IMG/VR virus record: IMGVR_UViG_2541047882_000008
Length of the DNA: 20,259 bases
Origin: a virus
Lineage: Duplodnaviria; Heunggongvirae; Uroviricota; Caudoviricetes
Reading direction: 5' to 3' (one strand)
The number at the start of each line of letters is the position of its first letter. Positions within the stretch are counted from its first letter, which is position 1. Both the position numbers and the translations under genes were made by a program. The notes under the pieces are model-generated. The model had not been told where the DNA came from. It worked only from the letters and a program-made list of their open reading frames with translations, and ran no database searches. This document shows, piece by piece, positions 1 through 18,940 of the stretch.

Positions 1-584
1 ATCATCCACCCAACTTAACTGAAACCAGGATGAAGTATATGCATATAAAGTTCACTTTGCCAAACTTCAGTATAAAAAACCACATAAAAAATAGGGTGTG
101 ATAAAAAATACCGTAACAATAAAGCAAAGGATTATAAATTCCGTTACAGTTACAAATGATACTCAAGAAACAATTCCTTAGGAAAAACTTATTTACAGCC
201 AATAAGTAAGACACTTATATGATATCAAGTTTTCATAAAACATAACTAGGCTAAATAGCTGCGCCTAATACCGCTACACTTTTGCCAGCCCATGTTTGCC
301 TCCGGGTATTGACCCCTTCTCTACGCAACTTCAGTTCCCACCACCAACTTTGCGGCAGCTTTGTAGGATCAATGTCTAAAAGAATAATGGTGACCGATAA
401 GAAAACGACTGAATAACTGCAAATTTTCGCTCAAAACCTTCCTGTCAGATCCATAGCGAATCAAGTGCTGAATGTCACAGTATCGAACAGAAAACAGTGA
501 CGATCTAACCCTTCAAGAATATTCTACGATTGTTCTGTTTAGGAAAAGCAAGGCGGGAAGTCGGGAGATAAGTCATTGATAAAG

Positions 585-645
585 TGGCGGAGAGAGGGGG
601 ATTTGAACCCCCGGTAGAGTTGCCCCTACTCCGGTTTTCGAGACC
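585..645 (-). other. Orphan 3' fragment (61 nt) of a tRNA-Ser(CGA)-like gene: anticodon stem-loop, long variable arm, T-arm and CCA end; 5' half absent
   Basis: Minus strand reads GGTCTCGAAAACCGGAGTAGGGGCAACTCTACCGGGGGTTCAAATCCCCCTCTCTCCGCCA, matching my recollection of the 3' part of E. coli serU; sequence upstream of the anticodon stem is unrelated, so no acceptor/D arm. Confidence 0.6.
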
Positions 646-1388
646 GATGATACAGAGTCGAAAAATCAAAGAGTTAAAAATTTTTCTTGGAATAAATGTC
701 TTTAAATCGTACACGAAAAATCAATGAATTACATAACATTAAAGAAGAATATTCCAAGCCTTCTTGAGGCTACCACCTGTTTTCAGGTGTCATTCAGACG
801 TGATTTGCCCCAGATTGGGAAAGCACGCTTTTTTCTCAGCTATCGTCCTCTTATTTTGCCGTTACATTTCTTTTTGCACTCTAATGATTAATTTACAATA
901 ATAATATCGGTAATTATTGAGTAATAATAAATTGATTATTGCAAATGTAATTTAATTCCATCTTAGCGTTATATTCCAATCTTTAATCTCCGCATGGAAC
1001 AAGTTGCATGCGTGACTATATTAAGACAACTTATAACCACCAAAACATTTGCTTTGCAAGCAAAAACAGTGACCATTGACTCTAAGAAAATTCCGATCTA
1101 TTGTTAGGGTCATCAAAGTTACTTAACAGTATTCCGAAATGAAAATACAAAGCAAGCTAATTGTCTTATTAAACATTATTATTGCATTTATATTATTTGA
1201 GCTTTTAGCTCAAAAATTTGGTTTGAGTACATTATTTTAAAGCAAGGTAAACAATATCGGGCACTCTAGTTTTTATAATTAACAATTAAACGTCCATAAA
1301 ATGTTATTTACTTTTCTTCGCTATTGTCACATCTTAATATAGTGGCTTACGCCACTCTACTTTCATCACATTTTGTACGTTTATGTAC

Positions 1389-1418
1389 TCGCCATGAAGC
1401 TCTTTCATGGCGATTTTT
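1389..1418 (+). terminator. Rho-independent terminator (10-bp perfect stem TCGCCATGAA/TTCATGGCGA, 5-nt loop, TTTTT)
   Basis: Perfect inverted repeat followed by a T-run on the + strand only; no U-tract on the - strand. Confidence 0.55.
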
Positions 1419-1504
1419 ATTCTTAATCCAAGAACATACTCCCTATCTATAGCAAAATCACTTTTTGAACAAAAGAATAACGTATTTAGGTAATCATTAC
1501 GAAT

Positions 1505-2086
1505 TTACCCTATAGGTGCTACTGGCCATTCAATATCCTGTGCAGTTGACGTATCAACACGGTTCAGCAATACCCGATACTTTTTCCAGGCTTCCAGCAA
1601 CAAGGTTTCTTCCTCCGTTGCGATTTCCAGATCCACAGCATCCTGAAGCGGCGCTATATGCTCACTGGCTACCTGCATCAGGCTGTTTTTTGTTTCTTCC
1701 ACCTCCCGGATCCGGAACAGTTTTTCTGCTTCCGTATCCTTCACCCAGGCTGTGCCGTTCCACTTCTGAAACTCCCCTTCCGGGGATAACCAGGTAACAT
1801 TTTCCGGTAATGAGCCGAGTTCAGAAATAAATAACGCGTCCCCTGATGCCACGTCATAAACTGTTTTACCCCGATGGTCTTCAACAAGATGCCACGATGA
1901 CTCATCACTGTTGAAAACAGCCACGAAGCCAGCCGGAATATCTGGCGGTGCAATATCGGTACTGTTTGCTGGCAGACCTGTATGAGGCGGAATATATGCA
2001 TCACCTTCACCAATAAATTCATTAGTTCCGGCCAGCAGATTATAAATTTTTATGGTCCGTGGTTGTTCACTCATTCTGAATGCCAT
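1505..2086 (-). CDS. tfa: Tail fibre assembly protein Tfa (193 aa)
   Basis: Translation [24 protein letters not shown]... matches lambda Tfa from memory; ATG overlaps the TAA of the out-of-frame stf C-terminal segment (TAATG). Confidence 0.85.
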
Positions 2087-2096
2087 TATGCAAGCC

Positions 2097-4031
2097 TCAC
2101 AATATAGTTAAATGCGATGTTTTTGACGGTGTTTTCCGCGTTACCAGCAGCGTTAACGGTGATGGTGTGTCCGTGTGAGCCAATCGCAACGGAGTGCGTA
2201 TGAGCACCAATACCGACAGTATGTGCATGTGCGCCTGCGCTTGCAGCAGTGCCGGACAGCGAGTGGGTACCCGACCATTCGCATTATCATTAGCTGCTTT
2301 CACTGCTTTCGGTGTCGCGGCAAGCGTTTCAGATGCGCTGTTGGTTGCACTACTGAGCTGGACAATTCCTTTTTGTGCTGTCGTAGCGTCCTGAGCAGTA
2401 TATTTCCCGTTAGCAAGGTCATAGGCTGCCTTTACCGACTTTGGCGTTGCCGCCAGCATTTCAGATGTGCTGTTGGTCGCGTTGCTAAGCTGAACTATCC
2501 CTTTCTGTGCTGTCGTTGCATCCTGTGCGGTGTATTTCCCGTTAGCCAGCTCATACGCGGCCTTAACGGCTTTTGGCGTTGCCGCCAGTGACTCGGAAGT
2601 GCTGTTAGTCGCACTGCTGAGCTGTACTATCCCCTTTTTCGTCGTGCTCGCATCCTCAAGCGCCACGGCGGATGCAATATCCTCTGCCCGTTTTGCTGCT
2701 GTCTCGGCGCGCGTTGCCGCGGATTCCGCCGTACTTTTGCTCTGAGCTGCCGCCGTCGCACTGCCAGCTGCCTCTGTCGCCTTCGTGGATGCCGTCGTGG
2801 CGCTGCCCTTCGCTGCTGACGCCTGTCTGGTCGCCTCATCTTTTGAAGCAGACGCCGATGATGCCGATGACGCCGCCGAACTGGCTGACGATGCGGCAGC
2901 CGTTTTTGAGGATTCTGCGCTGGTTTCCGACGCTTTCGCGTTCGTTTCGGATGTCTTCGCTGCGGAAGCTGACCTCGCTGCTGCCGTGGCCTGTTCAGTG
3001 GCTTCGCCAGCCTTCGTTGTGGCTGTTGAAGCGGATGATGCGGCGCTTTCTGCCGACTTTCCGGCAGCGGTGGCACTGGCTGAGGCCTGCCCGGCATTTG
3101 TTGACGCGGCGCTGGCAGATGAGGCAGCCGCTGTTTTTGAGTCTGCTGCTGCGGAGGCACTCTGTGCTGCTGCCGTCTCAGAAGACTTAGCGTTCGTCTC
3201 GGACGTTTTTGCCGCCTTCGCGGAATTTCCTGCCGCTGTTGCCGAGGAGGCTGCACTACTGGCGCTCGAGGCTGCGCTCGTTTCTGATGATTTTGCCGCC
3301 TCTTTTGAGGCCGCCGCATCCCGGGCTGAGGTGGCAGCTTCTGACGCCTTCGTGGTCGCGGCGGATGCAGAAGTGGCTGCTGATTGTTGTGACGCTGCCG
3401 CATTCGTTTCTGACGTTTTCGCCGCAGCGGCACTGGTAGCTGCCGCGCTTTTTGAGGACTCTGCAGCAGCAGCACTTTTCGATGCTTCACTGGCCTTTGT
3501 TGATGCCGTTCCTGCGCTGGAAGATGCTGACTGAGCAGATGATGCAGCCTGTCCGGCTGACGTGCTGGCGGCACGAGCTGAGCCTGCAGCATCGGTTGTA
3601 TGAGTTGCCGCCTCACTGGCAGATGTGCTGGCATCACTGGCTGACTTCTTCGCGGCTGCCGTGTTCTGTGCCACTGCGGACGCGTTACGCGCCACCTCTT
3701 CCACCATCAGTTCAAAACGGCGCAGAGCCTCCGGACGGGCATCATCCTCCGTCATGGCACCGAGAAAATCATTCAGCGTACCGGGTCGGGAATCTTCATA
3801 CACGGTGATGGTCCCGGCATGTGACGGCGGGAATCCTTCCACCAACAGAATAACGCTGTACTGACCGTACTCAACGTCCATGCTGTAACGCCCGGCTTCA
3901 TCCGGATTTTCTGAGGCCAGCGTGTTCACCACCACCGCGGTGCTGTTACGTTTTGCTTTCAGCTGGATTGTGCAGTTCTGTACCGGTTTTCCTGTGCCGT
4001 CTTTCAGTACACCTGAAATCTTTACTGCCAT
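2097..4031 (-). CDS. stf: Side tail fibre protein Stf, lambda-type N-terminus, Ala/Ser/Thr-rich shaft, collagen-like repeats; C-terminal ~62 codons are encoded in a different frame (frameshifted / internally deleted, probably non-functional)
   Basis: N-terminus [26 protein letters not shown] matches lambda Stf; last ~63 codons of this ORF are low-quality sequence, while the alternative frame from ~2273 to 2089 encodes [62 protein letters not shown], the canonical Stf C-terminus. Confidence 0.75.
2292..2636 (-). repeat. Tandem in-frame ~132-bp repeats (about 2.6 copies) inside stf, encoding [42 protein letters not shown]
   Basis: Three near-identical 44-aa units visible in the translation and as nucleotide repeats. 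Confidence 0.8.
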
Positions 4032-4041
4032 ATTCACCCCA

Positions 4042-4095: not shown

Positions 4096-4365
4096 TCAGA
4101 ACTTATAACCGACACCCACGATGAAACCGTCAGTGCGCCAGTCGCCACTGCCGGAGCCTTCATAAGCAATATCAATGGCCACGGATTCGGTCGGGTTAAA
4201 CTGCACGCCAGCTCCCCACGCCAGAGACGTGTTGCTGTGGCGACCGTCATCACTTCCGGTCAGCACGTCGTGCGTTTTCCCCTTGTTGTCAGTTACGCGG
4301 AGATAATCCCCGGAGAAAGTCGACACACGGCTGTAAGCCACACCCGCCATCGCATACGCGCTGAA
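4096..4365 (-). pseudogene. lom: 3' remnant of lom (Ail/OmpX/Lom outer-membrane protein family); N-terminal part deleted at the junction with the ylcI region
   Basis: C-terminal translation ...YAMAGVAYSRVSTFSGDYLRVTDNKGKTHDVLTGSDDGRHSNTSLAWGAGVQFNPTESVAIDIAYEGSGSGDWRTDGFIVGVGYKF has the aromatic C-terminal beta-strand typical of Lom; upstream part of the ORF is unrelated and overlaps ylcI. Confidence 0.6.
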
Positions 4366-4369
4366 CCTC

Positions 4370-4935: not shown

Positions 4936-5220
4936 TTTGTCGCTCCATGCGCTTGCTCTTCATCTAGCGGTTAAAATATTACTTCAAATCTTTCTGTATG
5001 AAGATTTGAGCACGTTGGCCTTACATACATCTGTCGGTTGTATTTCCCTCCAGAATGCCAGCAGGACCGCACTTTGTTACGCAACCAATACTATTAAGTG
5101 AAAACATTCCTAATATTTGACATAAATCATCAACAAAACACAAAGAGGTCAGACCAGATTGAAACGATAAAAACGATAATGCAAACTACGCGCCCTCGTA
5201 TCACATGGAAGGTTTTACCA

Positions 5221-6215: not shown

Positions 6216-6246
6216 TTGCATGAGTTGCCCATCGATATGGGCAACT

Positions 6247-6708
6247 CTATCTGCACTGCTCATTAATATACTTCTGGGTTCCTTCCAGTTGTTTTTGCAT
6301 AGTGATCAGCCTCTCTCTGAGGGTGAAATAATCCCGTTCAGCGGTGTCTGCCAGTCGGGGGGAGGCTGCATTATCCACGCCGGAGGCGGTGGTGGCTTCA
6401 CGCACTGACTGACAGACTGCTTTGATGTGCAACCGACGACGACCAGCGGCAACATCATCACGCAGAGCATCATTTTCAGCTTTCGCATCAGCTAACTCCT
6501 TCGTGTATTTTGCATCGAGCGCAGCAACATCACGCTGACGCATCTGCATGTCAGTAATTGCCGCGTTCGCCAGCTTCAGTTCTCTGGCATTTTTGTCGCG
6601 CTGGGCTTTGTAGGTAATGGCGTTATCACGGTAATGATTAACAGCCCATGACAGGTAGACGATGATGCAGATAACCAGAGCGGAGATAATCGCGGTTACT
6701 CTGTTCAT
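6247..6708 (-). CDS. Rz: Spanin inner-membrane subunit Rz (i-spanin)
   Basis: N-terminal TM segment, coiled-coil body; Rz1 embedded in +1 frame; follows the endolysin gene. Confidence 0.8.
6306..6488 (-). CDS. Rz1: Spanin outer-membrane lipoprotein Rz1 (o-spanin), fully embedded within Rz in another frame
   Basis: 60-aa ORF with lipobox VVGC and proline-rich mature region, nested in Rz. Confidence 0.7.
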
Positions 6709-17574: not shown

Positions 17575-17793
17575 ATGTACTTGACACTTCAGGAGTGGAA
17601 CGCTCGCCAGCGACGCCCAAGAAGCCTTGAAACAGTTCGTCGATGGGTGCGCGAATGCAGGATATTCCCTCCTCCGGTTAAGGATGGAAGAGAATATCTG
17701 TTCCACGAATCAGCGGTAAAGGTTGACTTAAATCGACCAGTAACAGGTAGCCTTTTGAAGAGGATCAGAAATGGGAAGAAGGCGAAGTCATGA
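17575..17793 (+). CDS. xis: Excisionase Xis (72 aa), lambda type
   Basis: Translation MYLTLQEWNARQRRPRSLETVRRWVRECRIFPPPVKDGREYLFHESAVKVDLNRP... matches lambda Xis; overlaps int start. Confidence 0.9.
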   Translation: MYLTLQEWNARQRRPRSLETVRRWVRECRIFPPPVKDGREYLFHESAVKVDLNRPVTGSLLKRIRNGKKAKS

Positions 17794-18841
17794 GCGCCGG
17801 GATTTACCCCCTAACCTTTATATAAGAAACAATGGATATTACTGCTACAGGGACCCAAGGACGGGTAAAGAGTTTGGATTAGGCCGAGACAGGCGAATCG
17901 CAATCACTGAAGCTATACAGGCCAACATTGAGTTATTTTCAGGACACAAACACAAGCCTCTGACAGCGAGAATCAACAGTGATAATTCCGTTACGTTACA
18001 TTCATGGCTTGATCGCTACGAAAAAATCCTGGCCAGCAGAGGAATCAAGCAGAAGACACTCATAAATTACATGAGCAAAATTAAAGCAATAAGGAGGGGT
18101 CTGCCTGATGCTCCACTTGAAGACATCACCACAAAAGAAATTGCGGCAATGCTCAATGGATACATAGACGAGGGAAAGGCGGCATCAGCCAAGTTAATCA
18201 GATCAACACTGAGCGATGCATTCCGAGAGGCTATGGCTGAAGGCCATATAACAACAAACCCGGTCGCAGCCACTCGCGCTGCAAAATCAGAGGTAAGGAG
18301 ATCAAGACTTACGGCTGACGAATACCTGAAAATTTATCAAGCAGCAGAATCATCACCATGTTGGCTTAGACTTGCAATGGAACTGGCTGTTGTTACCGGG
18401 CAGCGAGTTGGTGATTTATGCGAAATGAAGTGGTCTGATATCGTAGATGGATATCTTTATGTCGAGCAAAGCAAAACAGGCGTAAAAATTGCCATCCCAA
18501 CAACATTGCATGTTGATGCTCTCGGGATATCAATGAAGGAAACACTTGATAAATGCAAAAAGATTCTTGGCGGAGAAACCATAATTGCATCTACTCGTCG
18601 TGAACCGCTTTCATCCGGCACAGTATCAAGGTATTTTATGCGCGCACGAAAAGCATCAGGTCTCTCCTTCGAAGGGGATCCGCCAACCTTTCACGAGTTG
18701 CGCAGTTTGTCTGCAAGACTCTATGAGAAGCAGATAAGCGATAAATTTGCTCAACATCTTCTCGGGCATAAGTCGGACACCATGGCATCACAGTATCGTG
18801 ATGACAGAGGCAGGGAGTGGGACAAAATTGAAATCAAATAA
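17771..18841 (+). CDS. int: Tyrosine integrase Int (356 aa), essentially lambda Int
   Basis: Translation MGRRRSHERRDLPPNLYIRNNGYYCYRDPRTGKEFGLGRDRRIAITEAIQANIELFSGHKHKPL... through ...HLLGHKSDTMASQYRDDRGREWDKIEIK matches lambda Int from memory, including catalytic R-K-H-R-H-Y region. Confidence 0.95.
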   Translation: MGRRRSHERRDLPPNLYIRNNGYYCYRDPRTGKEFGLGRDRRIAITEAIQANIELFSGHKHKPLTARINSDNSVTLHSWLDRYEKILASRGIKQKTLINYMSKIKAIRRGLPDAPLEDITTKEIAAMLNGYIDEGKAASAKLIRSTLSDAFREAMAEGHITTNPVAATRAAKSEVRRSRLTADEYLKIYQAAESSPCWLRLAMELAVVTGQRVGDLCEMKWSDIVDGYLYVEQSKTGVKIAIPTTLHVDALGISMKETLDKCKKILGGETIIASTRREPLSSGTVSRYFMRARKASGLSFEGDPPTFHELRSLSARLYEKQISDKFAQHLLGHKSDTMASQYRDDRGREWDKIEIK

Positions 18842-18940
18842 TGATTTTATTTTGACTGATAGTGACCTGTTCGTTGCAACAAATTGATAAGCAATGCTTT
18901 TTTATAATGCCAACTTAGTATAAAAAAGCAGGCTTCAACG
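18842..18940. other. attL (B-O-P'): lambda P' arm with Int arm-type/IHF sites, 15-bp core TTAGTATAAAAAAGC at 18915-18929, then bacterial B arm
   Basis: Sequence 18842-18914 is the reverse complement of the lambda attP P' arm as I recall it; core followed by AGGCT matches the attB side. Confidence 0.85.

Follow-up and report, generated by a model that had tools for sequence, protein, structure and literature searches.

A gene for tRNA-Ser(CGA) that has lost its 5' end is the kind of footprint that an element leaves when it integrates in a tRNA gene. Why, then, is such a fragment found in a prophage that is integrated at attB-lambda? We analysed a stretch of 20,259 nucleotides (the window), which has the fragment near its left edge. 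A first-pass annotation of this sequence offered two answers: either the element or its tail-fibre module derives from a phage that integrates in serU, or two prophages at different loci recombined, which would imply a chromosomal rearrangement. We think it likely that the fragment is a fossil attR junction, which entered phage DNA in one illegitimate recombination event and has been a passive passenger since then.

The fragment is the 3' end of serU

On the plus strand, positions 585-646 are the reverse complement of the last 62 nucleotides of serU. In alignments, the fragment is identical at all 62 positions to the intact serU of BL21, PEC1009, and CT30, which ARAGORN identifies as a 90-nt tRNA-Ser with the anticodon CGA. 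The fragment covers positions 29-90 of the tRNA: four of the five bases of the 5' strand of the anticodon stem, the anticodon loop, the variable arm, the T arm, and the 3' strand of the acceptor stem with the CCA. The 5' 28 nt are absent, and identity to serU stops at 646, within the 5' strand of the anticodon stem. The first-pass annotation was therefore right that this is an orphan 3' fragment of tRNA-Ser(CGA), and the worry that it might not match any tRNA on proper alignment can be set aside; its end had been placed at 645, which is one base short.

The complete cloverleaf of about 90 nt that a functional gene for tRNA-Ser(CGA) would have is not there. ARAGORN calls no tRNA in the window and there is no Rfam tRNA match above the threshold, as expected for a piece of serU that lacks the 5' 28 nt. 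If the strand of the fragment is folded alone, it forms only the variable-arm and T-arm hairpins. A scan of positions 1-1600 for promoters and terminators found nothing at the fragment itself. A sub-threshold match to the Rfam family "Plastid-psbl-rps4 3'UTR RNA" (588-639, plus strand, 40.9 bits, E = 2.5e-7) is antisense to the tRNA fragment, and we read it as a cross-match to tRNA-Ser-like sequence. Similarly, we read the weak matches to sX4 and tmRNA in a permissive Rfam scan as cross-matches to tRNA-like sequence.

This is not a chance match. The 62-mer has a single copy in the window, and none is expected in 100 shuffles, even if up to three mismatches are allowed. Chance is further excluded by the adjoining 278 bp (307-584), which are 97-98% identical to the native spacer downstream of serU. 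A second copy, which the first-pass annotation had proposed to look for, is absent from the window, and the nearest complete genome (PEC1009) has an intact serU.

The surrounding prophage uses lambda integrase

The prophage in the window is lambdoid, DLP12-like, and defective. Its order is tfa, stf, a lom remnant, nohD, lysis genes, an ompC/nmpC-like porin gene, Q, rusA, and on to xis and int, followed by ybhC (Table 1). The heads and tails are deleted, and this prophage is probably a defective descendant of a phage that had lambda Int and carried the serU block. The integrase is identical to lambda Int at 351 of 356 positions, with five substitutions, and it is not the cognate enzyme of the serU fragment.

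The element is bounded by lambda att cores. One of these is in the window, and its partner, with one mismatch, is at 6245-6259 of the corresponding locus of PEC1009 (L001), 91 bp from ybhB. The partner is about 1.75 kb to the left of the window's first position, so it is outside the window. With lambda Int, with cores at both junctions, and with ybhB/bio on one side and ybhC on the other, the resident element is a lambda-type prophage at attB-lambda, as had been proposed. The serU fragment is about 2.35 kb inside this element, between ybhB and ybhC.

The native serU prophage of CT30 has a partner attL, with an intact tRNA and a cognate integrase at the tRNA locus. We found none of these in the window: there is no serU-type integrase (the similarity to the region of CT30 with the serU-type integrase is limited to the tRNA fragment) and no second serU core.

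PEC1009 and the window are 100% identical if two indels of about 1 kb are set aside. Relative to PEC1009, the window is missing 1014 bp in the tail fibre gene (in frame, with the joint at 2266-2269) and 1053 bp in the lom/nohD region (with the joint at 4364-4367), and there is a 4-bp overlap at each joint. No complete genome of the collection has both deletions together.

Table 1. Features of the window that bear on the origin of the serU fragment
Feature	Position	Strand	Basis or remark
AT-rich upstream region of the AraC-family (YdeO/PatE-like) regulator gene	1..251	-	start codon just left of window position 1
IS630-family terminal remnant, 55 bp	252..306	.	inverted-repeat tip at 252 (TAAATAGCTGCGCC), interior cut off at 306
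Captured chromosomal DNA, serU-proximal 278 bp of the yodB-serU intergenic spacer	307..584	-	alignment to native loci
serU 3' 62 nt, tRNA-Ser(CGA), bacterial-derived half at the attR junction	585..646	-	62/62 identity
Phage-side arm of serU-integrating lambdoid phages, non-coding except small ORFs	647..1504	-	continuous homology with native serU prophages of CT30 and TUM9812
tfa, tail fibre assembly gene	1505..2086	-	annotated in PEC1009, ev099, and CT30
stf, side tail fibre gene, mosaic	2097..4037	-	1014 bp shorter than in PEC1009
Lambda integrase	17771..18841	+	sole integrase in the window; aligns over 1-356 with lambda Int structures, E about 4e-236
Lambda att core GCTTTTTTATACTAA, true junction with ybhC	18915..18929	-	exact match, none in shuffles

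Native serU prophages have the same junction

In CT30, the order at serU is zinT, the spacer, the 62-nt fragment, the arm, tfa, stf, lom, J, about 40 kb, a frameshifted tyrosine integrase, the intact serU, and mtfA. This is the canonical layout for a prophage that has integrated in a tRNA gene. Positions 307-2269 of the window are 97.3% identical to the attR end of this prophage, and the similarity is unbroken rightward of 646. The same rightward continuity is seen with TUM9812, as far as 841. In TUM9812, the end of the prophage comes after yodB, and in O157:H7, the native serU attR adjoins espJ-tccP. The window's tail-fibre module does come from a lambdoid phage that integrates in serU, which supports the first of the two original alternatives.

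The two ends of the CT30 prophage locate the crossover. The serU at its attL (L014 14492-14581) has a compensating pair of changes in the stem of the variable arm (A to G and T to C), which is phage-derived. In contrast, the orphan fragments in the window and in CT30 have the bacterial alleles of the variable arm. So, the crossover was within CGGTCTCGAAAACCGGAGT, in the anticodon arm, and the window's copy is the bacterial-derived half. As a side note, the reconstituted serU of CT30 differs from the chromosomal allele, so lysogens express a slightly altered tRNA-Ser(CGA).

The window has a 3' block of a tRNA that begins in the crossover region, the native chromosomal continuation (the 278 bp of spacer, truncated at 307), and, on the opposite side, the integrase-distal DNA of the phage. 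In other words, the footprint of integration in a tRNA gene that was first noticed is, with its flanks, a complete attR-type junction of a serU-integrating phage.

Could the fragment instead be a decayed tRNA gene of a phage, or a copy of an attP core, and not bacterial DNA at all? Many phages (Klebsiella, Citrobacter, and Escherichia) have an attP that consists of about 78 nt resembling serU. These segments match the window from 565/569 to 646/648 at 91-95% identity, and ending at the same position is as expected for attP copies of this group of integrases. However, attP-type similarity ends 16 nt past the CCA in the attL copy of CT30, and 16-20 nt past the CCA in the other phages, whereas the window's copy runs on into 278 bp of chromosomal spacer that attP copies do not have. 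Also, it matches the chromosomal serU at 62/62 positions, including the bacterial alleles of the variable arm. Because of the chromosomal flank, a phage origin is already contradicted, and we give it next to no credence.

The phage arm to the right of the fragment has several other features. Two 18-nt direct repeats (659-676, CGAAAAATCAAAGAGTTA, and 714-731, CGAAAAATCAATGAATTA) are 55 bp apart, and the first of them is 13 bp from the tRNA fragment. Both are largely conserved in native serU prophages, including SerU-LTIIb, and it is possible that they are arm-type sites of the serU-type integrase. Further to the right, an ORF on the plus strand (1139-1240, MKIQSKLIVLLNIIIAFILFELLAQKFGLSTLF) would encode a hydrophobic protein of 33 amino acids that resembles YncL, a small membrane protein of the stress response (NCBIfam E = 1.3e-5; 25 bits, against a cut-off of 35). 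The native serU prophage of CT30, ev099, mEp332, and RM10410 all have the same translation of this ORF. On the same strand, a promoter-like site precedes it (1076-1104) and a strong terminator-like hairpin follows it (1389-1413). Within the tail-fibre genes, the Rfam family IS009, a candidate E. coli sRNA family, matches 1545-1743 on the minus strand with 218 bits, which is above the gathering score. This match is wholly within tfa, so the IS009 model probably reflects the coding sequence of prophage tfa.

The bacterial flank is joined to an IS remnant and an AraC-family gene

To the left of the fragment, the chromosomal similarity is cut short. Across 307-646, identity between the window and five native loci is 97.1-97.6% (BL21, TUM9812, CT30, the host of SerU-LTIIb, and PEC1009). 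At the left joint (306|307), the truncated interior of an IS630-family element is fused to the spacer of serU; in an intact element, the IS would run on rightward. We set this boundary and 646|647 by multi-genome alignments, and we delimited the IS630 remnant by aligning it with a full IS630-family copy on the plasmid pJNE23-001_1.

The gene beyond the remnant encodes an AraC-family regulator (L001 7257-8000, minus strand), and its coding sequence ends at window position 0. The same arrangement is found in phage ev099. The best NCBIfam match of the regulator is YdeO, below the curated cut-off. Given its family and its location, it is probably PatE (z0321, from OI-8), the activator of acid resistance. 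As for a precursor of the joint, in which the AraC gene is beside a full IS630-family element, there was none in 5,426 complete E. coli genomes. (The query was a chimera of the upstream region of the AraC gene and the continuing interior of the IS630, and we required at least 80% coverage.)

The native flank of serU is itself variable. The annotations of PEC1009 and CT30 (L010 10308-10978 and L006) lack a yodB between zinT and serU, and the gap between these two genes is 670 bp in PEC1009, as compared to 1443 bp, with yodB, in BL21.

Free phages carry the same block

Positions 1-1500 of the window are 98.9-99.3% identical to the Escherichia phages mEp332, PhiR70_1, and ev099. In these phages, the block is in the b region, between attP and tfa. 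For instance, ev099 has xis, int, attP, IS remnants, the AraC gene, the IS630 end, the spacer, the fragment, the arm, tfa, stf, lom, and J, in that order. mEp332 is a plaque-forming phage with lambda immunity that is kept as a K-12 lysogen (PMC3442831).

The exact left joint is present in 30 viral contigs from IMG/VR and in 542 of the 5,426 complete E. coli genomes (using window positions 236-376 as the query, with at least 80% of the query covered). In the GTDB representatives (one genome per species), the exact left joint has 0 matches, so this sample gives no sign of the composite outside of E. coli. The window-type right joint (577-717, at the same coverage) is in 1,098 of the 5,426 genomes, and the examples listed are at chromosomal positions that are typical of native serU.

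The copies of the composite (in the window, RM10410, ev099, mEp332, O157:H7, and TH9F11) are 99.1-100% alike. Every native locus that we sampled, including that of the host genome itself, differs from the composite copies at 8-10 of 340 positions. This pattern of divergence would fit a single capture in another lineage, followed by horizontal spread in phages, and not a duplication or translocation within the genome. Since chromosomal DNA from next to an att site is present in packaged genomes, with a non-homologous joint, this is host DNA that has been captured in a phage.

A chromosomal rearrangement is not needed

The second of the original alternatives was recombination in the chromosome between a resident prophage at serU and another at attB-lambda, which would give a hybrid prophage along with an inversion or translocation on a large scale. 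Physically, this could happen, as the serU prophages and the resident element share about 2 kb of nearly identical DNA (307-2269), and the serU-type right junction is common (1,098 of the 5,426 genomes). But the serU flank lasts for just 278 bp and ends at the IS remnant, after which come the AraC gene, the lambda att core, and ybhB, all within 2.4 kb. Also, free phage genomes have the identical structure.

The synteny comparison that had been suggested as a check for an inversion or translocation gave normal gene order around serU in PEC1009, the best-matching genome. There, serU is intact and unoccupied, between mtfA and zinT, with K-12-like synteny and at 1.25 Mb from attB-lambda; both the distance and the local gene order are like those of K-12. 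Between PEC1009's own serU spacer and the copy in the prophage, there are differences at 9 of 340 positions. As the closest complete genome has an intact and unoccupied serU in its normal context, no chromosomal rearrangement is needed. (This result is for the nearest complete genomes, and the source strain of the window differs from PEC1009 by the two absent segments of about 1 kb.) For the nearest genomes, the two-prophage hybrid is already contradicted, and overall we consider it very unlikely.

The first-pass annotation had also raised the possibility that the flanking sequence is simply a conserved internal region of a known phage. It is such a region, being about 99% identical in free phages, and it is not an att site of the resident element.

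The shared DNA of about 2 kb is also a possible substrate for large inversions that are bounded by prophages, which are known in E. coli. We saw no such inversion in the genomes that we examined here.

Could the fragment still be a working site?

The block to the left of the crossover is also found in a different kind of prophage. An IS3-family remnant, the AraC gene, the IS630 end, the spacer, and the fragment together form a cassette of 1868 bp (window -1222 to 646, starting at L001 6779). This cassette is 99.3% identical between the phages with lambda Int and an e14-like prophage near thrW/ykgR in O157:H7, E7476, and TH9F11. The homology ends exactly at 646, and beyond it, the DNA in these three genomes is unrelated: a GIY-YIG gene, pinE, and invertible tail-fibre genes. 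Among the 30 IMG/VR contigs with the left joint, the window-type arm is present in eight and the second arm in 21 (as two sub-variants), and one was unclassified.

If the left joint is a one-off event, then the two right arms were exchanged later, at or near the old core. Judging from the sequences, such a later exchange is possible but unproven. With a second, unrelated arm abutting the cassette right at the anticodon arm, the site may not have been inert at all times. It could have been catalysed by a serU-type integrase, or it could have come about by homologous recombination with resident serU prophages, across the 340-bp patch of host-derived DNA.

In a related e14-like prophage, of strain HCP5S3_I2 (L046, NZ_CM149870.1, about 5001-5030), a lipase gene replaces the AraC cassette. 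At the switch point, no more than 26 nt of a serU-like anticodon arm are left, two of them changed (CTGCGGTTTTTGAGACCGGTCC), and they may be an attP-like core.

These observations raise the alternative that the fragment remains active in recombination: serU-type integrases, or crossovers in the 340-bp patch with resident serU prophages, would swap the DNA on its two sides and shuffle the AraC cassette and the tail-fibre modules. Consistent with this, a nearly identical cassette is in two kinds of elements with its homology ending exactly at 646; the contigs with the left joint are divided between two right arms (8 and 21 of 30); HCP5S3 has another gene in place of the cassette and has kept the serU-like anticodon arm at the same point; and the fragment retains the anticodon loop and four of the five bases of the 5' strand of the anticodon stem. 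On the other hand, we found no paired serU cores around the loci of O157, E7476, HCP5S3, or 120899, and the window has no serU-type integrase. Furthermore, no copy varies within the 196 bp that adjoin the junction, so both site-specific and homologous exchange are compatible with the sequences, and ordinary homologous recombination would give the same pattern. We consider a working site to be unlikely, with a small residual chance. If it were true, then the orphan serU core would be a portable site that moves a 1.87-kb cassette with a PatE-like regulator of acid resistance, as well as tail-fibre modules, between unrelated temperate phages, and this would be a mechanism of cassette exchange that is built on a fossil att site.

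How the junction may have been captured

We prefer the explanation that the junction is a passively carried fossil, and it suggests the following history. First, serU would have been occupied by a lambdoid phage with an integrase that makes its crossover in the anticodon arm of this gene. At the tail-fibre end of that prophage, the displaced bacterial 3' 62 nt would have been joined to the yodB-serU spacer. A piece with the tail-fibre module, the phage arm, the 62-nt fragment, and 278 bp of the spacer would then have been joined illegitimately to other phage DNA, with the joint falling inside an IS630-family element that was beside the gene for an AraC-family (PatE-like) regulator. The product would have become established in the b region, which is non-essential, of phages with the Int and attP of lambda, and a descendant of one of these phages would have integrated at attB-lambda via lambda Int.

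The capture could have happened in either of two ways. Aberrant excision of the lambda bio type could have been followed by the gain of a lambda int-attP module. Or a resident serU prophage could have recombined with a phage that has lambda Int, through a homologous crossover in the tail genes and a second, illegitimate one. In addition, the insert could have been trimmed by a later deletion. We infer the order of these events and the mechanism of capture from the structure of the present copies; a single capture by an illegitimate mechanism, whether lambda-bio-like or IS-associated, would account for them. In the present genome, which has neither the partner site nor the cognate integrase, the fragment is most probably without function.

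Cargo genes at the ends of prophages are usually explained by imprecise excision. To our knowledge, a surviving att scar with its host flank has rarely been pointed out. The segment is a record, at the level of sequence, of a temperate phage that took up DNA from next to its att site and kept this DNA after it switched its integration module. Orphan tRNA fragments of this kind can mislead tools that call the boundaries of islands or prophages, and they can mislead inferences about rearrangements.

Comparison to known systems

serU is a listed site of prophages in STEC genomes. The native serU attR junctions (in KU052038, beside espJ-tccP in O157:H7, and in CT30 and TUM9812) are like the window in the 62-nt block, the spacer, the phage arm, and the tail-fibre genes. 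In the record for Escherichia phage SerU-LTIIb (KU052038, which is partial), a tRNA-Ser pseudogene of 62 nt is annotated beside yodB. Unlike these junctions, the window's copy is not at serU and has no attL partner or cognate integrase. Also, only 278 bp of its host flank are left, joined to an IS630 remnant, and it is inside an element that is bounded by lambda att sites.

The specialised transducing phages lambda bio and lambda gal form by aberrant excision, which takes host DNA from next to the att site. As in those phages, the window's relatives have chromosomal DNA from the end of a prophage within a phage genome, with a non-homologous joint. Unlike lambda bio or lambda gal, the captured DNA is entirely non-coding, the carriers use the Int and attP of lambda, and at least mEp332 is plaque-forming. 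Because the joint in the window is in an IS remnant, an IS-associated deletion explains it as well as a mechanism of the lambda bio/gal type does.

Moron cargo lies between the tail-fibre genes and the att site in lambdoid prophages, and the AraC-type regulators PatE, PsrA, and PsrB of EHEC are prophage-borne (PMC10877973). The window's fragment resembles such loci in that it is at the tail-fibre end of a prophage, beside an AraC-family gene, and the copy in O157:H7 is beside thrW. The difference is that the serU fragment encodes nothing. We found no description in the literature of a serU junction that has been relocated to the b region of a phage with lambda Int, or that is linked to an AraC cassette. 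Scars of tRNA fragments and host DNA captured next to att sites are already known, and the relocation and the linkage to the AraC gene are a modest addition to them.
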